The notes under the pieces are model-generated. The model searched no databases. It was given only the letters and a program-made list of their open reading frames with translations, and was not told where the DNA came from. The position numbers were made by a program, and so were the translations under genes. From positions 1-54,841 of the forward strand of contig CAZYLP010000001.1 in NCBI GenBank assembly GCA_964648345.1: DNA of 54,841 nucleotides. Direction: 5' to 3'. Shown here in pieces: positions 1-51,694 of the stretch. Numbering within the stretch: the stretch's first letter is position 1; each line of letters starts with the position of its first letter. The DNA comes from an uncultured Planctomycetota bacterium. GTDB lineage: Bacteria; Planctomycetota; J058; JACQDU01.

Positions 1-1748
<1,748 letters not shown>

Positions 1749-8711: not shown

Positions 8712-8721
8712 TCCGCCGAGA

Positions 8722-10281: not shown

Positions 10282-10302
10282 AGTGGCGGGGCGGAGAAGA
10301 TC

Positions 10303-34452: not shown

Positions 34453-36210
34453 ATGGAAGTCTCGTCACCGGAGCCGCGCGCGATCGTCCTGGCGAGGCTC
34501 TCGCCCGCGGTGCTCTGCGTCCTGGCTCTCGCGGCCGAGCTCGGCCGGCACATCCCCGCGCTCGTCGAGGCGCTCGGGGTCGTCGCCCTCGCGAGCCTCG
34601 TGCTCATCGCCCGCGCCCGCGTCCGGCGCGACCCGCCCGTCTCCGCCCCGGCGGCGGCGCTCGCGGTCCTCGTCTTCGTCGCGCTCGCCCTCTCGGTCGC
34701 GACCGGGGGGCGCGGCGCGCGCATCGCGCCCGACATCGAGCCCCTCTGCCGGCGGATCTCCGTCGTGCTCGCGCTGCTCGCGGGCACTGGGATGGCGCTT
34801 CCGTTCGCCCTCCCGTGGCTCATGCAGCCGGTCACGAGCCCGCGCCCGCGCCCGATCGCGCCGCTCCCCGGCAACCGCGCCGGTCTCGCGGCGATTGCGG
34901 GGACGTGGCTCGTCTTCCACGGGGTGATCCTCGTCACATTCCCGCCGCTCATCTGGTGCGACTCGTGGGTCAACCTCTGGGAGCCGCGCCTCTTCCAAGT
35001 GACGAACCGGCCCTACCTCCACACCCCCCTCTACGCCGAGCTCGTCCGCGCTCTCGGCGAGGGGCCCCACCTCGTGGCGGGCCTCACGCTCATCACGGTC
35101 CTCCAGCACGTCGCCGTGCTCGCGATCGGGGTCGTGCTCGAGCGCCTCGTCCGACGCGAGATGGAGAGCCGGCTCGCCGGCACCCTCGCCGGGCTCGTGG
35201 TCGTGATCGACGCGTTCTTCGCGTTCTACGCTCAGCGCATCGCGACCGAAGTCCTCGGGACGGCGTTCTTCGTGGGGGCGATCGCCCTCCTCGTCGAGGC
35301 GACCTGGAGGGAGCGCGCCGAGCGCTGGATCCTGAGCGCCGGGGCGCTCGCCGCGGCGGCCACCCTGACGCGGCCCGTCTTCCAGGCCTGGTTCGTCCTC
35401 GGGGGCCTCTGGCTCCTCGCGGTCCGGCCCATGAAGCCGCGATGGCGCGCCGCCGCCATCCTCGTGTTCGGCGCCGCGATGCCGATCGTCCTCCTCAAGG
35501 GACACAACTACGTCTTCCACGGCGACGCGCGCCTCACCGGGCAGACGGGGAAGGCGCTCGTCTACCGGATCATGACGGACATGCCGCCGCTCACCGACCC
35601 GGACGCCGCGCCGGACGACCCCATGGAGCGCGCGCGGCGGATCGCGTGGTCCAAGCGCGACGAGGTGTGGATGGGCCCATGGCTCGCCCTCGAGAGCGAG
35701 CTCGGCTGGTCGGACGCGCAGATCGACCGTGCCATGCAGCAGTTCTACTTCGAGCAGGTGCGTCGCCATCCGCGCGCGTTCATCGAGACCACCCTCACCT
35801 ACGCTGTGTCGACGCTCCTCGCGAACGACTCTTTCGCGTCCGTCGTCGACCGCCACAACGAGGATCGCAAGGTGGCGTTCTTCGGCTGGGATGCGATCCC
35901 GCCGTCGCCCGACGCCCCCGCGATCCTCGAGGCGGTGAACTCCCTCAAGATCACGTCGCGCGTGTCCATCTGCATCCTCGCGGCCCTGGCCCCGTTCGTC
36001 GTGACCGGCGAGCGCCGCCGGACGGCGCTTCTCGTCCTCGCATCCGCGGCCTACGCGATCGTCCTCGCGGCGCTCGTCCTCGGCGCCATGAGCCGGACGC
36101 GGCTCCCCGCCATGCCGCTCCTCGGGGTCGCCCTGGCCATGACGGTGGCGGGCGTCCTCGAGCGACTCGGAGCCCGCGGGGCGGTGGCCCGCCCGGAGCC
36201 GCGCCCATGA
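34453..36210 (+). CDS. Polytopic GT-C-like (PMT/ArnT-type) membrane glycosyltransferase candidate
   Basis: 585-aa hydrophobic ORF. Segments ATEVLGTAFF and LTRPVFQAWF line up with MTEPLGNFLA and LARPLTLLAV in the ~1017-aa proteins downstream. Confidence 0.6.
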   Translation: MEVSSPEPRAIVLARLSPAVLCVLALAAELGRHIPALVEALGVVALASLVLIARARVRRDPPVSAPAAALAVLVFVALALSVATGGRGARIAPDIEPLCRRISVVLALLAGTGMALPFALPWLMQPVTSPRPRPIAPLPGNRAGLAAIAGTWLVFHGVILVTFPPLIWCDSWVNLWEPRLFQVTNRPYLHTPLYAELVRALGEGPHLVAGLTLITVLQHVAVLAIGVVLERLVRREMESRLAGTLAGLVVVIDAFFAFYAQRIATEVLGTAFFVGAIALLVEATWRERAERWILSAGALAAAATLTRPVFQAWFVLGGLWLLAVRPMKPRWRAAAILVFGAAMPIVLLKGHNYVFHGDARLTGQTGKALVYRIMTDMPPLTDPDAAPDDPMERARRIAWSKRDEVWMGPWLALESELGWSDAQIDRAMQQFYFEQVRRHPRAFIETTLTYAVSTLLANDSFASVVDRHNEDRKVAFFGWDAIPPSPDAPAILEAVNSLKITSRVSICILAALAPFVVTGERRRTALLVLASAAYAIVLAALVLGAMSRTRLPAMPLLGVALAMTVAGVLERLGARGAVARPEPRP

Positions 36211-36587
36211 CGCGGACGCCCGCCGGCATCCTCGCGCTCGCCTGTCTCGCCATGGCGCCGGGGGTCTTCGGCGCTCTCGGGACGGACGCGACCGGCGAGG
36301 GGTTCGCCCTGGCGCTCCTCGCGGACCTGCTCGTCGCGGTCCTCGTCGCCCCGGCACTCTCGAAAACGAACCCGCCCGGCACGTGGTCCAGCGAGGCCTG
36401 CGACCTGGCCGCCTGGTTCGGAGGAGCCGCGGCGCTCGCCGGGACGACGCTCCTCTCGAGCCCCATGCCGCGCTGGCTCGGAGGCGACGGCCCCGTCCGG
36501 CACGCGTGCCTCGCCGCGGGCGGCGTCGTTGCGGCGTCGAGCGTCCTCCTGGCGCTCGTCCGTCCGCGTCGAAGCGACGCGACATGA
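36207..36587 (+). CDS. Small hydrophobic protein (126 aa), function unknown
   Basis: ATG 36207 overlaps the upstream TGA, and its own TGA overlaps the next ATG (ATGA on both sides). Three to four hydrophobic segments. Confidence 0.45.
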   Translation: MTRTPAGILALACLAMAPGVFGALGTDATGEGFALALLADLLVAVLVAPALSKTNPPGTWSSEACDLAAWFGGAAALAGTTLLSSPMPRWLGGDGPVRHACLAAGGVVAASSVLLALVRPRRSDAT

Positions 36588-39500
36588 TGCGCCGCGAGAT
36601 CTTCCTCGAGTGCGTCCTCCTCGCCGTCCTCCTCGCGTTCGGCGCGGTCCTCGAGCGGAGGCAGGGCGGCCTCACGCTCGTCTACCTCGGCCTCGCCGCC
36701 CTCTTCGCGGGCCCCGCCTTCAGGCGCCTCCTCGTCTTCCAGGGCCGCGCCCGCCCCGCGCCGCGCTGGACGCTCTCGCTCGAGCTCGCCGCCTTCACCG
36801 GGCTCATCGTGTGGCCGATAGGTCTCTGGTCGCACGCCATGCTCGCGGCGGCGGCGCTCTCCTTCGCGATAACGCCGCCCGAGAGCCTCGACCCCGGGGC
36901 CCGGGCGACGCTCCTCGAGGAGGTCGGCGTCGCCCTCGTCGCGCTGGCCGGCGCCGCGGTCGCGGCCGTCGTCAACGGGGCGAGCGCGGTCCCCGGGCTC
37001 GCGCTCCTGGTACCGCTCGCCCTGGAGGCGTGGAGCCCCGGCGCGTCGCGGACGGTGGCGAGCGCGGCCCGCCGCGCCGCGGCGTTCGGCATCGCCGGCG
37101 CCGCCGCGATCATGCTCGGCGCCGACTGGCGGCCCGGGGCGCGCGCCGACGAGAGCGTCTTCGGGGTCGCGCTCGTGCTCGCCTTCGTGGCGGGACTCGA
37201 CGTCCTCGCGCGCATGCTCTGCGGCAACCCGACGGGGCGGCTGGACGACCTCCTCGGAGCTGCCGTCGCGTTCGGGGGACGGCGCGGCGCGCCGCTCGGA
37301 TACGCGACCGGCCTCGCCCTCCTGGGCGTCGCGCTCCTCGGCACGGGCACGCTCCGGATCCCCGCGATGCACGCGCTCACGGCCGGCGAGGTCCTCCCCG
37401 AGGCGGGGCTCGCCTTCCTGGCGCCCGGAGTCAGCGCGTCCCCCGATGGGAACGGCGAGGAGTCGACGCTCGAGGTCCGCGAGGACGGGCGGCCGCTCGG
37501 GTCGTCCCACGCCTACATCGATGACATCCGCGAACAGGGCCACGGACGGTTCCGCCACGACCCGAGGCGGGTCACGTTCTCGTCGAGCGACGGGACCGAC
37601 CCGCGCGCGAACGGCCGCGCCTACACGCTCGCCTACGACTGGCTGCCCGGGCCCGCGCTCCTCGCCCTCCTCCTCCTCGCCGCGGTCCTCCTCAACGGAG
37701 GGCGGGCCGCGCGCGCGGCGGCGGCGATTGAGCGCGCGCCGCCTCCGATCATTGCGGCGGCGGTGCTCGCGGTCGCGCTCGCCTTCCGCATCCAGCTCGC
37801 GATCCGCGGCTCCGAGCTGACCCTCGGACACCTCGTGAAGGGCGTGCCCTTCTCGGACGCGCGCGACTGGTACGCCGTCGCCGTCGACTTCTCGCGGAAC
37901 GAGCGGAACGCCGCCATGTGGTACTGGTGCGACGCGCGACGGCCCTTCCACTATGCGTCGCTCGGGGCGATCTTCGCCCTCGTGGGGCCATCGATCCTCG
38001 CGGCGCGGGTCTTCAACATCGTGCTGAGCTCGCTCACCTCGGTCGCGATCTTCGACGCCACGAGGCGCATCGCGATCCGGCCCGTGGCGCTCGTCGCCGC
38101 CCTCGCGCACGCGCTCCTCCTCTACGACGCGCGCCAGGACATGTCGGTCATGACGGAGCCGCTCGGGAACTTCCTCGCCGCGCTTGCGGTCTGGGCGTTC
38201 GTCCTCGGGGCCACCCTCCTCGGCCGGGACCACGCGACCGGGCTCCGGCGGGCGATCCCGGTCTTCCTCGGGGGTGGCGTGGCCCTCGGCCTGTCGAACC
38301 TCGCGCGACCGCTCACACTCCTCGCGGTCGGCGGCCTCCCGCTCGCACTCGCTCTCGTCGCGGGCCGCGTCGGCGTGCCGTGGCGCCGCGTCGCGTGGGG
38401 GACGGCCGCCTTCGGCGCGGGCACCGCCCTCTCGGTCGTGCCGTGGCTCGTCCGGCAGAAGCTCGTCTACGGGATCTGGACCCTCTCGGAGAACACGGCC
38501 GAGGCGTGGTTCGGCGCGACGAGCCCCGACTACGGGACCTGGAGCAGCACCGTCGGGGGCCTCGCGGGCTCGAGGAACGTCACGGAGCGCGTCGCGTTCT
38601 ACATGGAGGGCGCCTCGCGGAACCTGCACGAACACCTCGGCTGGTACGTGCGGCACGTGATCGAGCAGCTCGGGATCACGCTCCGCTTCACCGGGCTACC
38701 CGCGTGGGCGATCGTGGTCTCGTGCGCGTGGTACGTGGCCGTCGCCCTGGCGAGCCCGGAGCGCGCTGGGGAGCGGCGCGGCCTCGCCGTCCTCGCAGCG
38801 CTCGTGATGGTCGCGCTCGTCCTCGCGCCGGAACCGCCGCTCTACATCGCGATGCTGGGCGGCCTCGGGCTCTCGATCGCGAGGCGGCGCCCGATCGCGC
38901 TTCTCGCGGGGCTGTTCGTCCCGACGCTCGTCTCGGTCGCCATGATCGCGATGGCCTTCGAGCGACGGCTCACCCACTCGGTCGAGTGGATCTCCGCGGC
39001 ATTCGCCAGCGCCGTGGTCTTCGAGACGCTCGCGTGGGTCGAGGGGGTGGACCCGCGCCGGGAGCCTCGCATCGGAGACGACGGCACGTGGGGTCGGACC
39101 GGGCGCGCGCTCGGAGTCGTGGCCGGGCTCACGGTCGTACTCGCGGTCGTCGGGTTCGCGCGCATCCTCGCGACGCCGCGGCCGCCCCGACGGACGGCGA
39201 TCGTCTCCGCCGAGCCGTGGGTCTCCCGCGCGCTCGATGCCGGGACGCGCGAGCGACTCGGCCCCCTCGCGTCGAGGCTCGTGGCGCGCCGCGCGCGCTT
39301 GCGTCCCGGCTTCGCGATCTCGCTCGCCGCGGGCGAGAGGATCGTGCACTGGTCGCCCATGTTCGAGCCGCGGACGTACGCGTTCACCGTCTTCGAGACC
39401 GAGCCCGAGCTCCCCGAGACCTACGCCGTCTGGCCCGGAGCGCCCCCGGAGGGCACCGCGGGGAGGGAGCTCATCGTCGTCGGCGTCCCGACGCCGCGCC

Positions 39501-39634
39501 CTCTCTGCGGGGGGACGCTCGAGGTTCTCGCGATGGGCGTCCTCGAGGGAGAGGAGCCGCCGCGCGCCTGGCTGTGCCCCGACGGGCCGACGGCGCGCGA
39601 CCACATCGCGACGGTCGCCTCCGCCTCGCGCTGA
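36584..39634 (+). CDS. 1016-aa multidomain membrane protein G1: N-terminal membrane module, conserved soluble loop, GT-C-like core and C-terminal soluble domain
   Basis: Internal ATG of track ORF 36383..39634. The start is supported by alignment with the paralog start MPRLRAVLECAVL. Motif FSDARDWYAVAV resembles the first-loop acidic motif of GT-C enzymes. Confidence 0.75.
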   Translation: MMRREIFLECVLLAVLLAFGAVLERRQGGLTLVYLGLAALFAGPAFRRLLVFQGRARPAPRWTLSLELAAFTGLIVWPIGLWSHAMLAAAALSFAITPPESLDPGARATLLEEVGVALVALAGAAVAAVVNGASAVPGLALLVPLALEAWSPGASRTVASAARRAAAFGIAGAAAIMLGADWRPGARADESVFGVALVLAFVAGLDVLARMLCGNPTGRLDDLLGAAVAFGGRRGAPLGYATGLALLGVALLGTGTLRIPAMHALTAGEVLPEAGLAFLAPGVSASPDGNGEESTLEVREDGRPLGSSHAYIDDIREQGHGRFRHDPRRVTFSSSDGTDPRANGRAYTLAYDWLPGPALLALLLLAAVLLNGGRAARAAAAIERAPPPIIAAAVLAVALAFRIQLAIRGSELTLGHLVKGVPFSDARDWYAVAVDFSRNERNAAMWYWCDARRPFHYASLGAIFALVGPSILAARVFNIVLSSLTSVAIFDATRRIAIRPVALVAALAHALLLYDARQDMSVMTEPLGNFLAALAVWAFVLGATLLGRDHATGLRRAIPVFLGGGVALGLSNLARPLTLLAVGGLPLALALVAGRVGVPWRRVAWGTAAFGAGTALSVVPWLVRQKLVYGIWTLSENTAEAWFGATSPDYGTWSSTVGGLAGSRNVTERVAFYMEGASRNLHEHLGWYVRHVIEQLGITLRFTGLPAWAIVVSCAWYVAVALASPERAGERRGLAVLAALVMVALVLAPEPPLYIAMLGGLGLSIARRRPIALLAGLFVPTLVSVAMIAMAFERRLTHSVEWISAAFASAVVFETLAWVEGVDPRREPRIGDDGTWGRTGRALGVVAGLTVVLAVVGFARILATPRPPRRTAIVSAEPWVSRALDAGTRERLGPLASRLVARRARLRPGFAISLAAGERIVHWSPMFEPRTYAFTVFETEPELPETYAVWPGAPPEGTAGRELIVVGVPTPRPLCGGTLEVLAMGVLEGEEPPRAWLCPDGPTARDHIATVASASR

Positions 39635-39643
39635 CGCGCGGCC

Positions 39644-41407
39644 CTACTGCGCGCGATCCTTGCGCGCGGCCGCGTCGAGCACGTCCTTCCAGATCGTCGT
39701 GTCCTCGGTGAGGAAGCGGACCGTCTCGGCGGCCGCCTTCTCGTGGCCGAGGGCCGACCAGTGCCCGTCGCCGACGACGACGAGCCGCGGCCGCTCGGCC
39801 GCCGGAACGGCCACGAAGCGTGGCGCGAGGTCGAGGCAGGGGACGCCGCGGCGCCCGCAGATTTCGAGCATGCGTCGGGCGGGCCGGCGGAGGTCGACAC
39901 CCTCGCCCATGGACGGCGCGCCGCTCGCCGCCGCCTCGACCTCCGGGCCCTGTGCGAAGATCGCGACGACGAGCCGTCCGCCGCGACCGCGCACGACGCG
40001 GTCGAGCTCGACCACGAGCGCGTCCGTCCGCGCCCAGGCGCGCGCCCAGAGCTCGGGGTGGCGTCGGGGCGCCTCGCGGAACACGTCCGTGTCGAGTGCC
40101 TCGCGGTCGCCACGGAGGTTCCGCGCGGCGACGACGACGCGGTCCACGACGAACGCCGAGAACGCGAGCCCCTCCCGCAGGGCGTGGAGGTAGAGTGGGT
40201 CCTGGCGAGACTGCTCGTTCGCAAGGCGCTCGAGCTCGTCGTCGTTGTTGCGGACGTCGTTGCCGGGCAGGAACTCGACGACGACGAGCGACGGGTCGTA
40301 GGCGAGCCCCTCCTTCTCGAGGGCGGCGAGCTCCTGGGCTTGCCCCCAGCCCGACCACCCGAGCGCGATCGCCTCGACCGGCACGGGGGACCTCGCCGCG
40401 AGCCCGCGCTCGAGCCTCCGGTGGAAGAGGTCGTCGAGCGCAACCTGGACGCCCTCGACGAAGCTGTCGCCGAGGACGACGACGCGGACCGTCCCCCGGG
40501 GCCGCGCGAGCGCGTGCTCGGCGTCGTGGTAGTTGCGCGAGTTCCATCGGACCTGGACCGGCGGCTGCTTCAGGCCGAGCACGGCACCCTCGTAGACGTA
40601 CGTCGCCCCCGGGACGTGCCAGGTCTTCATGCTCGGGACGTTCGTGTCGCGATAACGGTTCGGCGCGAAGCGGAACGCAAGCTCGCCAAGCGCCCAGAGC
40701 GCCAACGAGGCGAGGAAGACGGCGGCGAGCCGGAACGCGGGGCGGCGCCGCGCTCGGGCTCTCTCCTCGACTGGCGCGCCACGCGCGGCGAAACGGACGA
40801 TGGAGTCGAAGGCGAGGCACCCGAGCGAGACGACGTCGCCGGGGAACGCCGCGCGCGAGGAGGACGCCGTGAAGACGGCGCCGATCGCGAGCCAGCGGAG
40901 CGCTCGCTCGGGGGAGGACGGCGTCCGCGCGCGGAGCGGCTCGAGTGTGACGGCTGCGAGGGCCAGGACGATGCCGACGCTCTTGTACTGCCAGAGATCG
41001 GCGCCGGGGTACGGGTGCCCGATCCGGTACCAGACGGCAAACGCGCCCGCGGCGAGCGAGCCGCCGCCGAGGACGTGGAGCCACGCCGGGGCGGCCGTCG
41101 CTCGGTCGTCGCGCGCGAGGGCGTCGACGAGCGCGGCCGCGCCGGCCGCCGTGATCGCAAGGGCGGGGGGCGGCGAGCCGGCGAAGCACCCCGCGACCGC
41201 CGCCCCCTCGAGGAGCCACGCGAGGGGGCGCGGCGGTGCCGCGAGACCCCGGACGGCGAGGAGCCGGCGCACGTGGAGAGGCGCGGTCAGGTAGGCGACG
41301 AGGAGCAGCCCCAGCTGCACGCCCTCGATCCGCCGCTCGTGCATCGCCGCGAGAACGAGCGCGAGGCACATGGCGGCTTCGAGCGCGGCGAGGATCCGGC
41401 CTCTCAT
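39644..41407 (-). CDS. 587-aa membrane protein S1: N-terminal multi-helix module plus C-terminal SGNH-type domain
   Basis: Motifs VVVLGDSFVEG and VVVGDGHWSALGH. The N-terminal ~270 aa are hydrophobic. Confidence 0.75.
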   Translation of the reverse strand: MRGRILAALEAAMCLALVLAAMHERRIEGVQLGLLLVAYLTAPLHVRRLLAVRGLAAPPRPLAWLLEGAAVAGCFAGSPPPALAITAAGAAALVDALARDDRATAAPAWLHVLGGGSLAAGAFAVWYRIGHPYPGADLWQYKSVGIVLALAAVTLEPLRARTPSSPERALRWLAIGAVFTASSSRAAFPGDVVSLGCLAFDSIVRFAARGAPVEERARARRRPAFRLAAVFLASLALWALGELAFRFAPNRYRDTNVPSMKTWHVPGATYVYEGAVLGLKQPPVQVRWNSRNYHDAEHALARPRGTVRVVVLGDSFVEGVQVALDDLFHRRLERGLAARSPVPVEAIALGWSGWGQAQELAALEKEGLAYDPSLVVVEFLPGNDVRNNDDELERLANEQSRQDPLYLHALREGLAFSAFVVDRVVVAARNLRGDREALDTDVFREAPRRHPELWARAWARTDALVVELDRVVRGRGGRLVVAIFAQGPEVEAAASGAPSMGEGVDLRRPARRMLEICGRRGVPCLDLAPRFVAVPAAERPRLVVVGDGHWSALGHEKAAAETVRFLTEDTTIWKDVLDAAARKDRAQ

Positions 41408-41460
41408 CGCGTCAGCCCGCCAGCGACTCTATCGGTGCGCGAAGGCTGAGCGCAAGCCGA

Positions 41461-41469
41461 TGGTAGGTT
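41461..41469 (+). promoter_or_regulatory. Extended -10-like element TGGTAGGTT, 6 nt upstream of ATG 41476
   Basis: TGn plus TAGGTT. No Shine-Dalgarno sequence; implies a leaderless transcript. Confidence 0.25.
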
Positions 41470-41475
41470 CCTGCG

Positions 41476-44400
41476 ATGCCGCGCCTCCGGGCCGTCCTCG
41501 AATGTGCCGTCCTCGCCGCGCTCTTCGCGCTCGTCTTCGCCGTCGACCGCGCGCGGGGCGGAGGGACGTTCGTCTCGGTCGGCCTCGCGGTCCTCTTCGC
41601 GGGCCCAGTCTTCCGCCGCCTCCTCGTCCTCGAGGGCCGCGCGCGGCCGGCGGCCCGGTGGACGCGCGCGCTCGAGCTCGTGGCGTTCACCGGCATCGTC
41701 GCGCGGCCGATCGGGCTCTGGGCGCACGGGTTCCTCGCGGCGGTCGCCGTCCACCTCGTCGCAACGCCGCCCGAGGGACCCGCGGAGCGCGAGTCGCGCG
41801 CGACGCTCCTCGAGGAGCTCTCCGTGGCGCTCATCGCCCTCGGCGGCGTCGCGCTCGCGCTCGTCGCCAACCGGCAGGCGGCGGCGCTCCCCCTCGTCGC
41901 GGCGCTCCCACTCGCGCTCGAGGCCTGGGGGCCGCGCGCGCCACGGACGCTCGAGGCGGCCGCCCGGCGCGCCGCGGCGTTCGGGGTCGCGGGCGCCGCG
42001 GCTGTCATGCGCGGCACGGACTGGCGCGTGGGCGCGCGCGCGGATGACCTCGCCCTGAGCCTCGAGGCCGTCCTCGTGGCCGTCGCGAGCACCCGGGTCC
42101 TCGACCGGACGATCCTGGAGCGGCCCACGGCGCGGCTCGACGCGGCGCTCCAGCGGATCGCGGACTGGGGGGCGCGCGGCTTCGGCGCGTTCGGGCTCGT
42201 CGCGGCGGCCGCCGTCCTCGCGCTCGCGCTCATCGCCGCAGGCGCGCTCCGCGTCACGCGCACGCGGACCCTCGAGCCGGCGTCGTTCCGGCCTCTCGGC
42301 GGCCAGGCGTTCGAGGTGGATGCTCCGAGCACGCGACCGGACGAGGTCCGGAACGAGTCGACGCTCGCGGTCCTGGAGGACGGTCGGGCGCTCGGGCCGG
42401 CCCACGCGCCCCCGGAGACGATCCGGCGCGAGGGCCGTGGCGCCTACCGGCATCCAGGCGCGGTCGAGCTCTCGTCGAGCGACGGCACGGACCCGCGGAC
42501 GAACGGCCGGAGCTACGCGCTCCGCTACGACTGGTCGCCCGGCCTCGGGCTCGTCGCGGTCCTCCTCGTGCCGGCCGTCCTCCTGAACGTGCGGCGCGCC
42601 GCGCGTGCCGCGGCGGCGTTCGAGAGGGCGCCGCCCGCGTGGATTGCGGCCTTCGTCCTCGCGGTCGCCGTGGGCTTCAGGGTCTCGGTCGCCCTCACGG
42701 AGCACGACCGCACCTCCGGCACCCTCGTGAAGGGCATGCTCTTCTCGGACGCGCGCGACTGGTTCACGGTCGCGGTCGATTTCTCGCGGAACGACCGGAG
42801 CGCGCCAGCCTGGGCCTGGTGCTCGGCGCGGCGGCCCTTCCACTACGCACTCCTCGGGGCCGTGTTCGCGCTCGCGGAGCCGTCGCTCCTCGTGGCGCAG
42901 GTCTTCAACGTCGCGCTGAGCGCGCTCACGACCGTCGCGGTCTTCGACGCCGTGCGGCGCGTCGCGTGGCGGCCCGCGGCGCTGCTCGCCGCGCTCGGGC
43001 ACGCGCTCCTCTTCTACGACGCGCAGATCGACCTCTCCGTCATGACGGAGCCCGTCGGGAACTTCTTCGCGGCGCTCGCGGCGTGGGCGTTCGTCCTCGG
43101 GTCGGAGCGCCTCGCGACCCCTCGGCCACGCCGCGCGCTCCTCGCGTTCCTGGGCGGCGGGGTCTGCCTCGGCCTCTCGAACCTCGCGCGGCCGCTCACG
43201 CTCGCCGCGACGCTCGGGCTCCCCCTCGCACTCGCGCTCGTCGTCGGGGGCCGCGGGCGGTGGCGCCAGATCGCGGGGGGGTCGCTCTCCTTCGTCGCGG
43301 GCGTCGCGCTCACGGTCGGGCCGTGGATGCTTCGCCAGCGGCTAGTCCACGGGATCTGGACGATCTCCGAGAACACGGCGGAGGCCTGGTACGGCGCGAC
43401 GAGCCCGCGCTACGGGGGGTGGTCTTACGAGATCTCCCAGCTCCTCCCGGGTCGCTCGATCGCCGAGCGCGTCGCCTACTTCATGGACGGCGCGTCCCTG
43501 AACCTGAGGGAGCACCTCGTCTGGTACGTGACGCACGCGAGCAACCACTTCGGGGTAACGGTCCGCTTCATGGGGCCGCCCGGCTGGGTCGCGATCAGCG
43601 CGTGCGCGTGGTACCTCGCGACGGCGCTCGGGACCCCCGAGCGCGCCGGCGCCCGCCGCGGCGCCGCCGCGGGCGCGGCCCTCGCGGTCATGCTGCTCGC
43701 GCTCCGGCCCGAGACGCCACTCTACGCGATCTCGGCGCTCGGGGTCGTCCTCGCGCTCCTCGGACGGCGACCCGTGTCGCTCCTCGTGGGCCTCCTGCTC
43801 CCGACGCTCGCCTCGGTCGCCATGCTCGGCATGGGCTACGAGCGACGCCTCACCTACTCCGTTGAGTGGGTCGCGACCGCGATCGGCGCTCTCTGCATCT
43901 TCCACGGCCTCGAGAGGGTCGAGGGCGTGCCGCCGGCCGCGGTGGCACTCGGCGGCGGCGGCGCCTGGGGCCGCGCGGGACGGGCCGTCGGGCTCGTCGC
44001 CCTGGCGGCGTGCATCCTCGTCGGGGCCGGCTTCGCGCGCGCGCTCACGGGAACGCCGCCGCCGCGCCGCCCGTCTTCCGGGCTCCCCGCGGAGTCGTGG
44101 CTCCCCCGCGCCCTTGACGCGGAGGAGCGGCGCGCGCTCGGACCCCTCGCGAAGCGGCTGGTCGTACGGCGGGTCCGCCTCCGGCGCGACTTCGCGATCG
44201 GCTTCGCGGCGGGTGAGAGGATCGCTCACTGGTGTCCCCTCTTCGAGGGGCGCCCTTACGCCTACATGGTCTTCGACACGGAGCCCGAGCTCGCGGAGGG
44301 GTACGCCGTCTATCCGGGTCCGCTGCCGCCCGAGGCCGTGGACGCGGACCTCGTCCTCGTGGGCGCGCCGGTCGTGCGCGCGAACGGCGGCTCCTCGCTC

Positions 44401-44532
44401 GAGGTCCTCGTCCTGGGCGTCGCATCCATGGACGGCGAGCCGGTGCGGTGGTTCCGACCGCCGGGGAATGTGGCCCGCGCGCACGCGGATCGGATCGCCG
44501 CGGTCAGCTCGGCTTCGTCGCCGCGACGATGA
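41476..44532 (+). CDS. 1018-aa multidomain membrane protein G2, paralog of G1
   Basis: Alignable with 36584..39634 over the full length. Shared runs include RRAAAFG, SSSDGTDPR, FSDARDW and LGLSNLARPLTL. Confidence 0.75.
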   Translation: MPRLRAVLECAVLAALFALVFAVDRARGGGTFVSVGLAVLFAGPVFRRLLVLEGRARPAARWTRALELVAFTGIVARPIGLWAHGFLAAVAVHLVATPPEGPAERESRATLLEELSVALIALGGVALALVANRQAAALPLVAALPLALEAWGPRAPRTLEAAARRAAAFGVAGAAAVMRGTDWRVGARADDLALSLEAVLVAVASTRVLDRTILERPTARLDAALQRIADWGARGFGAFGLVAAAAVLALALIAAGALRVTRTRTLEPASFRPLGGQAFEVDAPSTRPDEVRNESTLAVLEDGRALGPAHAPPETIRREGRGAYRHPGAVELSSSDGTDPRTNGRSYALRYDWSPGLGLVAVLLVPAVLLNVRRAARAAAAFERAPPAWIAAFVLAVAVGFRVSVALTEHDRTSGTLVKGMLFSDARDWFTVAVDFSRNDRSAPAWAWCSARRPFHYALLGAVFALAEPSLLVAQVFNVALSALTTVAVFDAVRRVAWRPAALLAALGHALLFYDAQIDLSVMTEPVGNFFAALAAWAFVLGSERLATPRPRRALLAFLGGGVCLGLSNLARPLTLAATLGLPLALALVVGGRGRWRQIAGGSLSFVAGVALTVGPWMLRQRLVHGIWTISENTAEAWYGATSPRYGGWSYEISQLLPGRSIAERVAYFMDGASLNLREHLVWYVTHASNHFGVTVRFMGPPGWVAISACAWYLATALGTPERAGARRGAAAGAALAVMLLALRPETPLYAISALGVVLALLGRRPVSLLVGLLLPTLASVAMLGMGYERRLTYSVEWVATAIGALCIFHGLERVEGVPPAAVALGGGGAWGRAGRAVGLVALAACILVGAGFARALTGTPPPRRPSSGLPAESWLPRALDAEERRALGPLAKRLVVRRVRLRRDFAIGFAAGERIAHWCPLFEGRPYAYMVFDTEPELAEGYAVYPGPLPPEAVDADLVLVGAPVVRANGGSSLEVLVLGVASMDGEPVRWFRPPGNVARAHADRIAAVSSASSPRR

Positions 44533-45235
44533 GCGACCCCGCGAACTCGCGGAACACGGGGAGACGCTCGAGGAATCGCCCGAGCCGGTCCACGCCCGGG
44601 ATCAGCCGCGGCGGGATCGCGGGGTGGAGGAAGTCGTAGGGCTTGATGTCGATCGCGTCGAACCCGGCCCGCGCGAGCTGACGGGCGAGCGGCCACCGGA
44701 AGAACGCCGTCTCGCCGGGCGTGTCACCGGCCCAGCGCTTAATGGGCGGGACGTTCTTCTGGATCATGATCTGCGGGTTGAGCATGTTCGGCTCGGCGAC
44801 GACGAAGCGGCCGCCGGGCTTGAGCACGCGGTGCACCTCGTGGAGGGCGACGTCGACCTCGAGGTGGTGGAGGATCGAGCTCCCGATCACGGCGTCGAAC
44901 GTCCCGCTCCGGTGGGGGAGAGCCTCGATCGCGGCCCGCTCGAACCGCGCGGAGGGGCAGCGCGCGTGGGCCTGGCGGAGGAGGTCGTGCGAGATGTCGA
45001 CGCCGAGGATCACGGCTTCGGTCGAACGCGAGAGGATGTCGGAGAAGATCCCGATCCCGCACCCGAGCTCGAGGATCATGGCGCCCTTCTTCGCCCCGCC
45101 GAGGGCGAGGAGCATGTCCGCGCGGCGCCGCGCCCGCAGCTGACCCGCGGGCGAGCTCCAGCCCCAGATCTCGGGGGCACAGGAAGCGATCTTCGCGCCG
45201 TGCTCGATCTCCGCCGCGTGTCGAGTGGTCGCCAT
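44504..45235 (-). CDS. Class I SAM-dependent methyltransferase
   Basis: Motifs ILELGCGIGIF and VIGSSILHHL. ATG 45235 is preferred over the track's TTG at 45274. The 3' end overlaps the convergent gene by 29 nt. Confidence 0.75.
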   Translation of the reverse strand: MATTRHAAEIEHGAKIASCAPEIWGWSSPAGQLRARRRADMLLALGGAKKGAMILELGCGIGIFSDILSRSTEAVILGVDISHDLLRQAHARCPSARFERAAIEALPHRSGTFDAVIGSSILHHLEVDVALHEVHRVLKPGGRFVVAEPNMLNPQIMIQKNVPPIKRWAGDTPGETAFFRWPLARQLARAGFDAIDIKPYDFLHPAIPPRLIPGVDRLGRFLERLPVFREFAGSLIVAATKPS

Positions 45236-45302
45236 GAGGGCGCGACTGTACCGGCGCCCGAAGGCCCGGTGCAAGCCTGTTGTGGCGCTGGCCCGCGTCC
45301 CT

Positions 45303-45308
45303 TAGGCT
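45303..45308 (+). promoter_or_regulatory. -10-like hexamer TAGGCT, 9 nt upstream of ATG 45318
   Basis: The same hexamer occurs 8 nt upstream of the minus-strand ATG 4001 (plus strand 4010-4015, agccta). Confidence 0.2.
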
Positions 45309-45317
45309 TCAGCGGAC

Positions 45318-46790
45318 ATGGCCGAGACCGCCACCGAGCCCTCCGCGTCCGCGGCACCGCCCTCGCCCGGCGCGGTGGCAGAGGCACTCACCCCCGAGTG
45401 GCGCGACTACTTCCTCCGTCTCATTCAGAACCCGCTCCGCTTCTCGGGCCCGCGGAACTACCTCCGCCGCGACATTCGATCGGCCTTGCGCCGGCTCGTC
45501 CCCCAGGATGCGAAGGTCCTCGAGGTGGGGACGGGGAAGGGCGACCTCCTCTCCGACCTCCCGAACGCGAAGCGGCACGGGATCGACGTCCTCCCCGAGG
45601 CGGTCGCCGCCGCGCGTAGCCTCGACGCGAAGATGACCGTCGAGCAGGCGGACGCGCTCACCTTCACGTCGAACGAGCGTTACGACGCGGTCATCTGCGA
45701 CCGCCTCTGCCACTCGATCCCAGACGTGCAGAAGCTCATCACGAACCTCGCCGGCCACCTCTCCGCGGACGGGAGGATCTTCCTCACCTGCTTCAACTTC
45801 GTCTGGGCGATCCCGCTCATCCTCGCGGGGAAGCTCGGCTTCTACGAGAAGTCCCCCGAGGCGAACTGGCTCTCCGAGAGCGACTTCGAGAACCTCTTCG
45901 CGCTCGCGGGCGTCGAGCCCGTCCACTGCGAGAAGCGGATCCTCTTCCCCTACAAGATCCCGCTCCTCGACTTCTTCCTGAACAAGTTCCTCGCGAAGCT
46001 GCCGCCCTGGAGCATCTTCGCGCTCTACCGGATCTACGTGCTCCGCCCGCGCGTCGTCGCGCGTCCCGTCCCCAAGGTGACGGTGCTCGTCCCCGCGCGG
46101 AACGAGTCGGGGAACATCCAGGGCGCGATCGACCGCACGCCCGTCATGGGGAGCGGGACCGAGCTCATCTTCATCGAGGGGAACTCGACCGACGACACCT
46201 ACGCGCGGATCGAGCAGGGGATCAAGGATTACAAGGGCCCGCTCCAACTCTCTCTCCACAAGCAGACGGGGAAGGGGAAGGGCGACGCCTGCCGCCTGGG
46301 CTACGCGAAGGCGACGGGCGACCTCGTCCTGATCCTCGACGCGGACCTCACGGTCCCGCCCGAGGACCTCCCCAAGTTCTACGACGTGATGGTCGGAGGT
46401 CTCGCCGACTACGTCCACGGGACCCGCATGCTCTACCCCATGGAGCAGGGAGCCATGCGCTTCCTCAACAAGCTCGGGAACGCCACCTTCGCACGGATCT
46501 TCTCGTTCGTCCTCGACAAGCCGATCCAGGACACCCTCTGCGGGACGAAGGTCCTCTGGAAGAAGGACTACGACAGGATCGCCGCGAACCGCGCCTACTT
46601 CGGGGACTTCGACCCCTTCGGGGACTTCGACCTGATCTTCGGGGCGTCGAAGCTCAACCTGAAGATCATGGAGATCCCGATCCGCTACAAGAACCGCACG
46701 TACGGAGAGACGAACATCTCGCGGTTCAGGGACGGCTTCCTCCTCCTCCGCATGAGCATTTTCGCGGCGCGCAAGCTCAAGTTCGTTTGA
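45318..46790 (+). CDS. Fusion protein: N-terminal SAM methyltransferase plus C-terminal GT2 (polyprenol-phosphate glycosyltransferase-like)
   Basis: Methyltransferase motif VLEVGTGKGD. GT2 motifs VTVLVPARNESGNI, IEGNSTDDT, LDADL and DTLCGTK. Confidence 0.85.
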   Translation: MAETATEPSASAAPPSPGAVAEALTPEWRDYFLRLIQNPLRFSGPRNYLRRDIRSALRRLVPQDAKVLEVGTGKGDLLSDLPNAKRHGIDVLPEAVAAARSLDAKMTVEQADALTFTSNERYDAVICDRLCHSIPDVQKLITNLAGHLSADGRIFLTCFNFVWAIPLILAGKLGFYEKSPEANWLSESDFENLFALAGVEPVHCEKRILFPYKIPLLDFFLNKFLAKLPPWSIFALYRIYVLRPRVVARPVPKVTVLVPARNESGNIQGAIDRTPVMGSGTELIFIEGNSTDDTYARIEQGIKDYKGPLQLSLHKQTGKGKGDACRLGYAKATGDLVLILDADLTVPPEDLPKFYDVMVGGLADYVHGTRMLYPMEQGAMRFLNKLGNATFARIFSFVLDKPIQDTLCGTKVLWKKDYDRIAANRAYFGDFDPFGDFDLIFGASKLNLKIMEIPIRYKNRTYGETNISRFRDGFLLLRMSIFAARKLKFV

Positions 46791-47611
46791 CCGCGCGCGG
46801 AGACAACTGGTGGCGCGCCTACGCGGTGCTCTCCAAAGGCCTGGCGGTCCTGAACCGCCTCCCGATCGGCGAGCGCTCCGTGAAGATCGGCCCCGACCGG
46901 CTCTACGTCCACTCCGTCGACCGCCTCCTCGCGCTCATGAGCTGGAAGTGGGGCGTGGGGGAGCGCGAGGAGCGCGCCCTCATCGAGCGCGCCGTCCTCC
47001 CCGGCATGATCGCCGTGGACGTGGGGGCGAACGTCGGGCTCCACACGCTCGGGCTCGCGCGTCGCGTGGGCCCGGAAGGACGCGTGCACGCGCTCGAGCC
47101 CGAGCCCGACAACTTCCGGCTCCTCGCGCGCGGCGTGCAGAAGGCGCACCTCAAGAACGTGCGCCTCCACCAGGTGGCCGCCTCGGATGCGCCGGGCACG
47201 CTCACGCTCTACCTCTCGGATGCGAACCGCGGCGATCACCGCACGTCGCCCGCGCCCGAGGCGCGCCGCTCGTTCACGGTGAGCGCGACGCCGATCGATC
47301 TCCTCCTCGCGGGCGAGCCCCGGATCGACTTCGTGAAGATCGACGTCCAGGGGGGCGAGGTCGTCGTCCTCCGCGGCATGAAGGAGACCTTGCGGCGCTG
47401 CGAGAAGATCGGCGTCCTCTGCGAGCTCACGCCCGCGCTCCTCGGACGCGCCGGGAGCAGCGGAGAGGAGCTCGTGGCGCTCCTACGCGAGCAGGGCCTC
47501 GCGCCGCACCGGATCCGCAAGACCGGCGACGTGGCCCCGATCGACGGCCCCGAGGCCATCCGCGAGGCCGAGCGCTCGGGCTACGTGAACCTCTTCTTCC
47601 GGCGGCCCTGA
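46787..47611 (+). CDS. FkbM-family methyltransferase
   Basis: Motifs VDVGANVG and FVKIDVQGGE. The TTG start overlaps the upstream TGA; the start is uncertain. Confidence 0.7.
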   Translation: MTARGDNWWRAYAVLSKGLAVLNRLPIGERSVKIGPDRLYVHSVDRLLALMSWKWGVGEREERALIERAVLPGMIAVDVGANVGLHTLGLARRVGPEGRVHALEPEPDNFRLLARGVQKAHLKNVRLHQVAASDAPGTLTLYLSDANRGDHRTSPAPEARRSFTVSATPIDLLLAGEPRIDFVKIDVQGGEVVVLRGMKETLRRCEKIGVLCELTPALLGRAGSSGEELVALLREQGLAPHRIRKTGDVAPIDGPEAIREAERSGYVNLFFRRP

Positions 47612-49434
47612 TGGTCGAAGCGCCGGTCCGGCGGCGACTCGCGCTCGAGTCCGCGGTCGTCCTCGGCGCGCTCGCGATCGGCGCCTGGCGCGGGCACGCC
47701 GCGGGAGGCATCACGCTCGAGCTCATCGCGTTCGCCGTGCTCCTCGGAGCCCTCGCGGCGCAGAGGCTCCTGGCCCTCGCCGGCCTCGCACCGCCCGGCC
47801 CACGCTTCGTCTTCGCCCTCGAGCTCGCCGCGCTCGCGGCTCTGGTCGAGACACCGGTCGCGACGTGGGGCGCGGTCGTCGCGTCGATCGCGGTCACCCT
47901 CTCCGCGTGCCCCGCGGTCGTCACGACGGCGCTGCCCGCGGGCCGCGCCGAACGACTCGCGCTCCTCGCCTTCGCGCTCGGGACCGTCGCGGTCGTCATC
48001 CGTGGGTGGGACGCCGCCCACCGGGCGGCGCCCTGGGCGGCCCTCCCGCTCGGCGTGCTCCTCCTCGACGCGATCCTGAACGTACCGCGTCCGCTCGCGG
48101 GCGACCCGTCACGCCAGATGAGCGCGCTCGCGCTCGTCGCGGCCTCCGCGCTCGAGCACCTCCACTGGGGCCCTCCGGCGTTCGAGACCGAGGCGGTGAC
48201 CCTCATCTGCTCGTGGGTCGCGGCGTCCTGGGCCGCGATCGACGCGGTCGCGCGGCGCGGCGCCGGGTCCGGCGACGTGCGTCTGATCGCGACCCGACGG
48301 CGCGTCGCCTTCGCCTCGGTCGCGTGCGGGGCCGCGCTCGCGGTCGTCTGGATCGCCGGCGAGGTCGTGATCCGCCGGCTCCCGGCGAGCCAGGCGATCC
48401 ACGGACCGCCCTCCGTGGACGACGGCGCGACCTTCCACGTCCCGAACGCACGCTACGTCTTCCCGGGCGGCGTGACCCGCGACGCTCCTGAACCGCGCGA
48501 TCTCGTGCGGAACGAGTTCACCTGGAACTCGGAAGGGTTCCACGATCGGGACCACGCGCGCGCGAAGCCGGCCGCGACGGTCCGAGTCGTGTTCCTCGGC
48601 GACTCGTTCGTCGACGGCTACCAGCTCCGGCTCGAGGACCTCGTCCACGAGCAGCTCGCGCGCTCGCTCGAGCGCGTGACCCCCGCTCCCCCAGCCGTGG
48701 AAGCGCTCGCGTTCGCGACCGCGGGCTGGTGCCAGCGGCAGGAGCTCGCCGTCCTCCGCGAGCGCGCGCTCGCGTACTCCCCCGACCTCGTCATCCTCGA
48801 GTTCTTGCCGTCTAACGACGTCTACGAGAACGCGGGCGACCTCGCGACGACCGTCCGCGCGAGCCAGGCGACGCTCGCGCGCTTCCTGAGCGCGACCGCG
48901 CGCCGGCGCGGGCTCTTGTTCGCGGGCCTCGTCGTCGAGCGGATCGACCGCGCCGCGCGCGCCGTCACGGGTTCGGGCGATGCACACGGCCGGACGGACG
49001 AGGTCTGGCGCGAGGGCCTGGTCCCCGACCGCGCCGCCCTGTGGGAGAGCGGCTGGGCCACGACCGAAGCGCTCGTGAGGGAGATCGCCGACGCCGTCGA
49101 GTCGAACGGGGCGCGGCTCGTCGTCGTCGTGTTCGCGAACGAGAGCGAGGTCGCGAGCCGGGTCGACTCCGCGCCCACGAGGCCCGGCTTCGACTTCGGC
49201 GCCCCGTCCCGGCGCATGGCGGGGATCTGCGAACGGCGCCGGGTCCCTTGCCTCGAGCTCTCCGGGCGTCTCGCCCGGCGGGACGCGGGGACACGCGCGC
49301 AGATGTTCCTCCTCGGCGACGGCCACTGGAGCTCCGTCGGCCACCGCTGCGCGGCGGAGGAGATCGCTTCGTTCCTCACCGCCGAGACGAACATCTGGAC
49401 CGAGATCGTCCAGCGCGCGCGCGAGCGGCGCTAG
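47611..49434 (+). CDS. 607-aa membrane protein S2, paralog of S1 (N-terminal membrane module plus SGNH-type domain)
   Basis: Internal ATG of track ORF 46810..49434 (TGATG junction). Motifs VVFLGDSFVDG and FLLGDGHWSSVGH. Confidence 0.75.
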   Translation: MVEAPVRRRLALESAVVLGALAIGAWRGHAAGGITLELIAFAVLLGALAAQRLLALAGLAPPGPRFVFALELAALAALVETPVATWGAVVASIAVTLSACPAVVTTALPAGRAERLALLAFALGTVAVVIRGWDAAHRAAPWAALPLGVLLLDAILNVPRPLAGDPSRQMSALALVAASALEHLHWGPPAFETEAVTLICSWVAASWAAIDAVARRGAGSGDVRLIATRRRVAFASVACGAALAVVWIAGEVVIRRLPASQAIHGPPSVDDGATFHVPNARYVFPGGVTRDAPEPRDLVRNEFTWNSEGFHDRDHARAKPAATVRVVFLGDSFVDGYQLRLEDLVHEQLARSLERVTPAPPAVEALAFATAGWCQRQELAVLRERALAYSPDLVILEFLPSNDVYENAGDLATTVRASQATLARFLSATARRRGLLFAGLVVERIDRAARAVTGSGDAHGRTDEVWREGLVPDRAALWESGWATTEALVREIADAVESNGARLVVVVFANESEVASRVDSAPTRPGFDFGAPSRRMAGICERRRVPCLELSGRLARRDAGTRAQMFLLGDGHWSSVGHRCAAEEIASFLTAETNIWTEIVQRARERR

Positions 49435-50385: not shown

Positions 50386-51694
50386 GCAGGCGGGCCTTCA
50401 TGATCATCTCGCCGCCCATGATCCACTTCGTCTCGAGGACCTCGAAGCCGGTCTTCTCGAGGTGCTCGCGGAGGCTCTTCGCCGTGAAGTGAGTCACGTG
50501 CTCGTCCGAGTAGCCGCCCGGCATGACGCGCTTGTAGCACCACTCGATGAACGGCCAGACCCACGTCCCGTAGTCGGGCGTCCCGATCACGAGCGTCCCG
50601 CCGGGCCGCAGGACCCGCTTCATCTCCTCGAAGGAGATCTCCTCCATGTGGATGTGCTCGATCACCTCCGAGCAGATCACCTGGTCGAACTGGCGGTCCT
50701 TGAAGGGGAGGCGCTTGAGCACGCCCGCCGTGAGCCGCCGCCCGAGCTGGCGGAGGAAGCGGAGCTTCTTGAAGGCGACCTCGAGGCCGACCGCCTCGGG
50801 GAGCGCCATGATCACCATGCTCGTGCCGCAGCCGATGTCGAGGACGGACGAGCTCTCGCCGAGGAAGCCGAGGATGATCTCGTAGCGCTTCCGCTGCCAG
50901 TACTTCTGGAGCGGGATCCGGCTGTAGAAGGCGCGCTGGTCGTAATCCGCGGAGAAGTAGCTGTAGCGGAGCCACCAGAGGCGCCACGCGAGCTTCAAGT
51001 AGCGGATCCCGAACTTGAGGACGCGCGCGTGGGAGACGCCCGCGGCGCGCGGCCGGTAGTGGAACGGCACCTCGTGCACCGAGAAGCCGAGCGCGTACGC
51101 GATCACGAGGATCTCGGGGAGCGCGTCGAAGTCGCGGCCCCACGTCTTCACCTCGTCGAAGATCCGCCGGCGGTAGAGCCGGAAGCCGCTCGTCATGTCC
51201 TGGACGGGCACGCCGAGGACGCCGCGGAGGAAGCCGTTCAGGACTCGCGAGAGCGAGTCGCGGAACCAGCCCGCCTGCGAGTGGCCGAACCGCGCGTAGC
51301 GGGAGCCCACGATCATGTCGGCCTTGTGCCGCGCCTCGAGCATGGAGAGCGCCGCGCTCGGGTCGTGGGAGCAGTCCGCGTCGAGGGTGAGGATGTACTC
51401 GCCCTTCGCCGCCTCGAAGCCCGCGCGGAGCGCGCCGCCGTAGCCCGGGTCCTTCTGGGCGAGCGCGACGATCGAGAGCTCGCGGCACGCCGCGACCGTG
51501 CCGTCCTCGAGGTTCGGGACGACGATCGTGATGTCGTAGGTGAGGCGCGCCTTCTCGAAGACGCGGCGGAGCTGCGGGATGATCCGCCGGACGTTCTCGG
51601 CCTCGTTCCACGCCGGGATCACGACCGAGACGTCGAGCTTCGCGACTGCCGGCGCCGACTCTGCCTTCTGGACCTCGAGCGCTGTCGTCGTCAC
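50378..51694 (-). CDS. Fusion protein: N-terminal GT2 (polyprenol-phosphate glycosyltransferase-like) plus C-terminal SAM methyltransferase
   Basis: Internal GTG of track ORF 50378..52594, overlapping the upstream TGA (GTGA). GT2 motifs VSVVIPAWNEAENV and LDADCSHDP. Methyltransferase motif VLDIGCGTS. Confidence 0.85.
   Translation of the reverse strand: MTTTALEVQKAESAPAVAKLDVSVVIPAWNEAENVRRIIPQLRRVFEKARLTYDITIVVPNLEDGTVAACRELSIVALAQKDPGYGGALRAGFEAAKGEYILTLDADCSHDPSAALSMLEARHKADMIVGSRYARFGHSQAGWFRDSLSRVLNGFLRGVLGVPVQDMTSGFRLYRRRIFDEVKTWGRDFDALPEILVIAYALGFSVHEVPFHYRPRAAGVSHARVLKFGIRYLKLAWRLWWLRYSYFSADYDQRAFYSRIPLQKYWQRKRYEIILGFLGESSSVLDIGCGTSMVIMALPEAVGLEVAFKKLRFLRQLGRRLTAGVLKRLPFKDRQFDQVICSEVIEHIHMEEISFEEMKRVLRPGGTLVIGTPDYGTWVWPFIEWCYKRVMPGGYSDEHVTHFTAKSLREHLEKTGFEVLETKWIMGGEMIMKARLRG

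Follow-up and report, generated by a model that had tools for sequence, protein, structure and literature searches.

A predicted N-terminal membrane module shared by SGNH and GT-C-like proteins in a surface-glycan cluster of an uncultured planctomycete

We have analyzed a 54,841-nucleotide stretch of DNA from an uncultured Planctomycetota bacterium (GenBank assembly GCA_964648345.1, contig CAZYLP010000001.1, positions 1 to 54,841 of the forward strand), which we call the window. It lies in a large surface-glycan gene cluster, the polymer being exported through an ABC transporter. Four of its proteins, G1, G2, S1 and S2, open with what profile comparison identifies as one homologous membrane module of ~250 amino acids (aa). 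In G1 and G2 the module precedes a GT-C-like membrane domain, and in S1 and S2 an SGNH domain. As judged by these comparisons and by a database survey, the module is a previously undescribed membrane domain family, able to move between proteins. The module family and its promiscuous fusions are new; the type of glycan locus is familiar.

Homology of the N-terminal module

G1 (36584-39634, forward strand, 1016 aa) and G2 (41476-44532, forward strand, 1018 aa) are 55% identical over their whole length, and are therefore the full-length paralogs that a preliminary description of this DNA had taken them to be. S1 (39644-41407, reverse strand, 587 aa) and S2 (47611-49434, forward strand, 607 aa) were likewise described as paralogs, and this agrees with their 41% identity across residues ~187-580 (E = 8e-80). 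The GC content of the window is ~72%, and the frames of all four genes fit the profile of GC content at third codon positions (GC3). The start of S2 overlaps the stop codon of an FkbM-type methyltransferase gene.

The preliminary description had further claimed that one N-terminal membrane module is common to all four proteins. BLASTP comparison of G1 with S1 and S2 is marginal, with E = 0.019 and 0.17. Since pairwise comparison of G and S proteins was too weak to decide the matter, we have used profile methods. Alignment of G1 and G2 (residues 1-265) with 20 S-type N-termini using hhalign gave a probability of 99.3% and E = 3e-20 over columns 2-176. On removal of the three most G-like S proteins the value was E = 1.6e-14, and when S1 and S2 were also dropped it was 1.6e-15. 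As controls of the same composition we used the alignment reversed, 20 shufflings of its columns and the second membrane domain of G1 and G2; all gave E ≥ 0.12. The similarity is thus far above that of any control, and the claim of a common module is upheld by the very comparison that the preliminary description had suggested. A phmmer search of 5.8 billion proteins with G1 retrieved a 623-aa SGNH protein (P0003) by its N-terminus only, with E = 7e-13 and 40% identity across G1 residues 29-167.

In a genome so rich in GC, the likeness might reflect merely the Ala/Leu/Arg-rich composition of membrane segments, and the marginal BLASTP values are what such a reading would lead us to expect. Yet a profile E-value of 3e-20, or 1.6e-15 with sequences from outside the window, is set against controls at 0.12 and above, and the match to P0003 was found among 5.8 billion sequences. 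Moreover, the module alignment is collinear from residue 1, and polar signature residues are held in common. We give the compositional explanation almost no credence; it is refuted by hhalign and its controls. The homologous core is ~180 residues at high confidence, and ~215-255 with the last anchor helix included.

The module occupies residues 1-259 of G1 (36584-37360), residues 1-264 of G2 (41476-42267), residues 1-253 of S1 (40649-41407) and residues 7-260 of S2 (47629-48390). In G1 the module hidden Markov model (HMM) spans residues 1-259, and the HMM of the G membrane domain (Gc) spans 271-870. Within the window the modules of G1 and G2 are 59% identical, and all other pairs 25-27%. Searched against every six-frame open reading frame (ORF) of the window, the module HMM matched only G1, G2, S1 and S2, with the next match at E = 0.26; this HMM was built partly from those four proteins, so the result is a specificity control and not an independent test. 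Further candidates from the window were rejected as homologs of the module, each with hhalign E ≥ 0.19. These were the Wzm permease, an LPG_synthase_TM protein, the membrane protein G0, a 126-aa hydrophobic protein and two ORFs of 853 and 533 aa, all described below.

Predicted structure and conserved residues

An AlphaFold2 model of G1 residues 1-270, made from a 20-sequence alignment, has a mean predicted local distance difference test score (pLDDT) of 81 and a predicted template-modeling score (pTM) of 0.77, and residues 1-180 are mostly above 90. Helices are predicted at residues 2-26, 32-52, 61-75, 81-96, 110-140, 142-150, 158-178 and 188-213. Beyond these come a linker, modeled with less certainty, and a predicted anchor helix. 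The Arg-rich loops (the N-terminus, 47-60, 151-164 and the stretch before the last helix) all lie on one side. From the positive-inside rule the module is thus likely to be a bundle of eight transmembrane helices with both ends cytoplasmic, and the helix that follows it would cross from inside to outside, carrying the partner domain. This crossing helix corresponds to the lone anchor helix of relatives that have no module. In a fusion with an AT3 domain (below) the first AT3 helix takes its place.

The positions best conserved among 64 modules, at 70-92% each, are E9, G29, R48, E67, E148, P152, R156, R163 and R164. Glu9, Glu67 and Glu148 lie within helices, and in the topology given above the conserved Glu and Arg residues would cluster in the cytoplasmic half of the bundle. 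The signature residues are kept alike in S-type, G-type, AT3-fused and stand-alone modules. This suggests that the module may have the same function whatever its partner.

The preliminary description could not place this architecture in any described family, and we too find none for the module. It has no match in Pfam, NCBIfam or the PDB sequences, apart from one sub-threshold match to DUF5671 in a stand-alone module protein (P0040; E = 4e-4, 20.7 bits against a cut-off of 28.4). A Foldseek search of the PDB with the module model gave a best E-value of 0.87 and template-modeling (TM) scores of at most 0.23, and so no fold match, in a library that presumably holds MBOAT, HGSNAT-type and many transporter structures.

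Distribution and partner domains

Word-indexed searches missed most relatives of these Ala-rich proteins, returning four matches for G1 and five for a G-type profile, and an exhaustive profile search was therefore needed. When 1.84 billion protein representatives were searched in this way using HMMER and the module profile, 53 clusters were found, in all of which the module is N-terminal, extending from residue 1 to about 260. We classified the partners in a set of 72 module-bearing proteins. The majority (44 of 72) have an SGNH domain. Another 11 have a beta domain and a G-type membrane domain; these include G1, G2 and six proteins of 810-845 aa. One protein (P0054) has an AT3 acyltransferase domain (PF01757, E = 3e-30), the module and AT3 being two separate domains. 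The other 16 are short fragments, stand-alone forms or proteins with unidentified domains, including P0052 (1171 aa) and P0058. At another locus (L003, positions 11800-14709) a single ORF encodes the module, a small beta domain, a G-type membrane domain and a C-terminal S-adenosylmethionine (SAM) methyltransferase. It directly follows the gene of a module-less paralog, P0080.

Complete stand-alone module genes occur on two unrelated contigs, encoding P0040 (230 aa; within L085:3329-6144) and P0051 (225 aa; within L086:174-1411). Each overlaps the stop codon of the gene upstream. The products of the upstream genes are homologous at their C-termini, and the one that is complete is a polytopic membrane protein of 708 aa; significant family matches are absent for both. 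In a neighbor-joining tree P0040 and P0051 group with the short module proteins P0045 and P0055. The same crude tree interleaves the partner types, which suggests that the module may have been shuffled repeatedly. Every identified partner class also occurs without the module. Module-less G-type relatives include P0004 and P0080-82, and SGNH proteins that lack the module and have one anchor helix occur widely across many phyla.

The combination of one membrane module with unrelated catalytic domains, proposed in the preliminary description for the window, is thus borne out there by the G-S homology at the N-terminus. The database survey that it called for extends this to an AT3 fusion, a G-type fusion that also bears a SAM methyltransferase, fusions to unidentified domains and stand-alone genes. 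The module is shown to be an autonomous, reusable domain that is fused to, or encoded beside, glycan-modifying kinds of membrane enzyme.

Among GTDB genomes, taken as one per species, the module was found in six loci (L004-L009). Five of these, in four metagenome-assembled genomes, are labeled Planctomycetota, and the sixth, also in such a genome, is labeled only 'uncultured bacterium'. Two apparent variants were discarded. An apparent split pair of module and SGNH genes at the start of L003 has an upstream 257-aa product that is soluble and unrelated, and the sequence that seemed to lengthen the S-type ORF of L004 upstream is not a domain but an antisense frame free of stops.

The SGNH proteins

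The SGNH/AlgX-like domain comprises residues 281-582 of S1 (39662-40567) and 300-606 of S2 (48508-49428). S1 scores 42.6 bits with Lipase_GDSL_2 (PF13472; cut-off 32.9) and S2 scores 35.6 bits with ALGX (PF16822; cut-off 26.5), both passing the Pfam gathering threshold, as expected from the C-terminal SGNH domains noted previously. The score of S2 with PF13472 is 29.5 bits, below the cut-off. Across 20 homologs, G313-D314-S315, D547, H549 and W550 (S1 numbering) never vary, and at least 90% of these sequences retain N383. S1 and S2 therefore have both of the features that define the SGNH/GDSL superfamily, an above-threshold profile and the Ser and Asp/His blocks. Given the invariance of the GDS serine and the D-G-H-W motif, the SGNH domains look catalytically competent. 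A third SGNH/GDSL protein of the cluster, of 363 aa (22370-23461, reverse strand), has no N-terminal module.

The arrangement recalls the AT3-SGNH O-antigen acetyltransferases OafA and OafB, in which AT3 and SGNH lie in one polypeptide (PMC7448272, PMC9833829). S1 and S2 likewise have a polytopic N-terminus, one linking helix and a periplasmic SGNH domain, they are encoded in a surface-glycan locus, and the SGNH Ser-Asp-His is kept. However, their membrane domain is not AT3. Neither S1 nor S2 matches PF01757 at E ≤ 1, and the module model has no fold match in the PDB. The module has 8 helices with a different signature, against 10 in OafA and OafB, and other fusions join it to GT-C-like proteins and to a true AT3 domain. 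S1 and S2 may also be compared with the MBOAT-SGNH pairs PatA/PatB and AlgI/AlgJ/AlgX (PMC12148441), since they match the AlgX-type SGNH model, and in both cases membrane and SGNH components would act jointly on an exported polymer. In contrast to those pairs, the membrane part in the window is fused to SGNH and has no detectable MBOAT similarity. No AT3 or MBOAT gene was recognized among the Pfam-scanned genes of the 54.8-kb window.

The G proteins

G1 and G2 have the same four-part architecture. In G1 the module is followed by a small beta-rich domain (residues ~259-353; 37358-37642), a GT-C-like membrane domain (~355-865) and a C-terminal alpha/beta domain of ~150 aa (~870-1016). The last had been noted as an extra soluble domain; the small beta-rich domain between the module and the membrane domain had been overlooked. 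The beta-rich domain is defined by its invariant columns, by AlphaFold2 strands (pLDDT ~75-90, except for a dip at ~280-300) and by a match to P0004. The motifs EDGxPL, GxGR(Y/F) and SSSDGTDPxxNGRxY are invariant across the G-type proteins and their module-less relatives. This domain probably faces the periplasm.

The membrane domain had been described as GT-C-like. It is indeed polytopic, and the question is whether it belongs to GT-C. Its only family match is to PMT_2 (PF13231), at 18.6 bits for G1 and 21.1 for G2, against a cut-off of 26.1. The range is 18.6-22 bits in G1, G2 and P0077, the only three of 14 G relatives that match; the membrane protein G0 and 10 others do not. In G1 the match covers residues 454-610, aligned with profile positions 4-148. 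In G1, G2, P0004, P0042/43 and P0080-82 the domain's first helix is followed by a conserved D-(S/T)-x-x-Y sequence, in what is likely to be the first external loop, facing the periplasm. In being polytopic the G proteins resemble the ArnT-like PMT_2 GT-C glycosyltransferases, as they would in the D-(S/T)-x-x-Y of the predicted first external loop. They differ in scoring below the 26.1-bit cut-off and in having no match among PDB sequences. Searches of the PDB sequences with the membrane domain gave nothing at E ≤ 10 except a chance match to cytochrome c2 (E = 1), and NCBIfam gave only a chance-level match of G1 to RnfD (E = 0.033, 13.5 bits against a cut-off of 400). The AlphaFold model of full-length G1, from an 8-sequence alignment, is poor (pLDDT 52, pTM 0.42). 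With this model Foldseek found nothing at E ≤ 0.001, and among matches to transporters were STT3A (E = 0.026) and EmbA/B (E = 0.23), to which we attach no significance. Membership of GT-C is thus weakly supported, and we refer to G1 and G2 as GT-C-like, unproven.

G0 (34453-36210, forward strand, 585 aa) is a polytopic membrane protein that has neither the N-terminal module nor the beta domain. It had been listed as a further GT-C-like protein. Its kinship to the G membrane domain is confirmed, as it matches the Gc HMM at E = 1.2e-8 and is a distant relative, but it matches no GT-C profile and nothing else in Pfam. Both G0 and P0004 are linked to the same family as the G membrane domain. Between G0 and G1 lies the gene of the 126-aa hydrophobic protein (36207-36587, forward strand), which had been said to lead into G1 by ATGA coupling. 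The sequence has ATGA overlaps at 36207, with G0 upstream, and at 36584, with G1 downstream. GC3 is 0.90 for this ORF, which is coding-like, compared with 0.69 for the frame of G1 upstream of 36584. The latter value is not coding-like, so that the annotated start of G1 is correct. The 126-aa protein has no family match in Pfam or NCBIfam, but in locus L005 a weak match to it (E = 0.004) lies in synteny, following the G0 ortholog.

Three-component periplasmic glycosylation is known also for ABC transporter-dependent pathways, and some GT-C enzymes bear extra extracytoplasmic domains (PMC11127046). G1 and G2 resemble the GtrA/GtrB/Gtr* and GT136 systems, which add side-chain sugars after export, in being polytopic, probably of GT-C type and encoded in a glycan locus (PMC11127046). 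By analogy with the three-component systems, G1 and G2 would add side-chain sugars from a lipid-linked donor (PMC11127046). Unlike those systems they carry the eight-helix N-terminal module and a small beta domain, and their membership of GT-C is unproven. No pair of polyprenyl-phosphate sugar synthase and flippase was identified adjacent to G1 and G2. A membrane protein of the LPG_synthase_TM family (15918-17063, reverse strand) is encoded ~20 kb upstream of G1 and G2, beside a methyltransferase. Next to it is a 617-aa fusion of a Rieske [2Fe-2S] domain and GT2 (17929-19782), which is itself unusual. These two proteins could serve as flippase and lipid-sugar synthase for the GT-C-like enzymes. 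The architectures of the S and G proteins are variants of known modification architectures, and it is the module itself that has no known relative.

Possible functions of the module

Our favored proposal, which we hold tentatively, is that the module is an autonomous membrane adaptor that co-localizes glycan-modifying enzymes at the inner membrane. It would bring the enzymes of post-polymerization modification to one place on that membrane: SGNH acyl-transferases or esterases and GT-C-like glycosyltransferases, joined in other genomes by AT3 acyl translocases. The modules would bind other module copies, or a common partner that might be the exporter, so that glycosylation and acylation of the exported, lipid-linked glycan would be coordinated. 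A pocket in the cytoplasmic half formed by Glu9, Glu67 and Glu148 together with Arg48, Arg156, Arg163 and Arg164 would be the interaction or ligand site. Catalysis would be left to the partner domains, that is the periplasm-facing Ser-Asp-His of S1 and S2 and the probable lipid-linked-sugar transferase of G1 and G2.

The AT3 fusion bears on this directly. The module is probably not itself an acyl translocase, because here it is fused to an AT3 domain that already does that step. At another locus (L084:3-3190) genes for a module-SGNH protein (reverse strand, truncated where the contig ends) and a module-AT3 protein (forward strand) are divergent neighbors beside Wzm/Wzt. The two halves of an OafA-type enzyme are here separate proteins, each bearing the N-terminal module. 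We lean from these observations towards docking rather than binding of substrate or lipid carrier, because neighboring AT3 and SGNH proteins each bear the module where OafA and OafB have a single polypeptide (PMC7448272).

If the module did bind the lipid carrier or acceptor, it would grip a polyprenyl phosphate or pyrophosphate anchor, whether on the acceptor glycan or on the freed carrier, and so hold the enzyme on its substrate. All of the partner enzymes that were identified belong to classes active on glycans at the membrane, which would suit this function. The conserved cluster of Arg with three Glu resembles the phosphate- and metal-binding sites of enzymes, and nothing in the module, such as a protein-like repeat or an interface feature, demands docking. 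However, the positive-inside rule places the conserved charges in the cytoplasmic half, while the acceptor headgroup and the SGNH and GT-C active sites are periplasmic. Furthermore, module-less relatives with the same SGNH or G-type domains are common, so that capture of substrate needs no module. On this evidence we regard carrier binding as unlikely.

The three conserved Glu within helices might alternatively belong to a transporter or ion-coupled unit, in which the buried residues of the bundle would move a lipid-linked donor, the recycled carrier lipid or protons. Fusion would then merely place the module beside an enzyme that needs it. The existence of stand-alone genes, which form their own clade, is consistent with such a role, as is the lack of a recognizable flippase next to G1 and G2, the nearest candidate being the LPG_synthase_TM protein ~20 kb upstream. 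But a single transported substrate could hardly suit SGNH, GT-C-like and AT3 partners alike. The Foldseek search of the PDB revealed no resemblance to a transporter fold (best E = 0.87, TM-score at most 0.23), and helices 3, 4 and 6 are short, at 9-16 residues. We regard transport as less likely still.

The proposal that the module co-localizes enzymes meets difficulties of its own. Buried, conserved Glu and Arg fit the binding of a ligand, an ion or a lipid headgroup at least as well as they fit docking, and the topology that puts them in the cytoplasmic half was inferred from charge distribution. The genes of P0019, P0020 and P0042 and the module gene of L007 lie outside glycan loci, and no ABC exporter is encoded within 10 kb of them, which makes a fixed link to Wzm/Wzt unlikely. 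In L001 and L005 no second module gene lies within 10 kb to either side, which excludes obligatory heteromeric pairing. Lastly, the modules of the G proteins, S1 and S2 are only 25-27% identical although they reside together. A bolder version, in which the module is a new membrane fold and a general adaptor that assembles AT3, SGNH and GT-C enzymes into a 'modification complex' by self- or hub-binding, seems to us somewhat improbable.

After polymerization, bacterial surface glycans may be acetylated or given side-chain sugars, and this sets antigenicity and phage sensitivity. Such modification is currently explained by a small number of fixed arrangements, namely AT3-SGNH fusions, MBOAT-SGNH pairs and three-component Gtr-like systems. 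The module would add a further design principle, in which one interchangeable membrane domain is placed on each class of enzyme. Were it a docking unit it would give a handle on how modifying enzymes are organized around glycan export, and a Planctomycetota-associated lineage would use a docking domain where others fuse AT3 to SGNH. Were it to bind lipid or an ion, it would be a functional membrane fold of a new kind. The family has few members and a narrow taxonomic range. Its clear signature, together with natural fused, split and module-less variants, makes direct tests practical.

Genomic context

The exporter genes of the window encode a Wzt-like ABC ATPase (30981-32255, forward strand; Pfam ABC_tran, 7e-21) and a Wzm-like ABC-2 permease (~32180-33172, start uncertain, forward strand; Pfam ABC2_membrane, 1e-9), together spanning 30981-33172. 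The cluster also includes GT4, several GT2, heptose-pathway and deoxy-sugar genes, and two AsnB-like amidotransferases. At least a dozen SAM methyltransferase domains are present in the window, several of them fused to GT2.

Module genes lie 0-3.5 kb from Wzm/Wzt in L001, L005, L084 and the window, and the Wzm/Wzt proteins of the first three are close homologs. In L001 an S-type gene is divergent from Wzm and has GT4, methyltransferase and AsnB neighbors as in the window. The order in L005, which is from Planctomycetota, is an S-type gene, an ortholog of G0 directly downstream (E = 1e-63) and the weak match to the 126-aa protein, with Wzm/Wzt 2.4 kb away. An obligatory link of the module to Wzm/Wzt was nevertheless rejected, as several module contexts have no exporter.

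The two AsnB-like amidotransferases are at either end of the window (153-1748 and 53297-54712), and the set of AsnB, methyltransferase and GT4 recurs in L001 and L003. A sugar-precursor block at 8674-15269 encodes an HldE-like kinase/cytidylyltransferase, a GmhA-like SIS protein and a zinc alcohol dehydrogenase, with a split transketolase-like pair within it at 12446-14223. The block hints that a heptose or a branched-chain sugar may be present in the polymer. Two large ORFs, at 19800-22361 (forward strand, ~853 aa) and 51691-53292 (reverse strand, ~533 aa), each encode a polytopic protein with more than 10 hydrophobic segments. They have no Pfam match, are not related to the module and have no homolog in the fetched loci. 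Finally, a divergent 'GGVTIE' subgroup (L088:8238-11758 and L087:9450-11704) comprises S-type genes that lie outside glycan loci and overlap the stop codon of the gene upstream; in L088 that gene encodes a Ser/Thr protein kinase.

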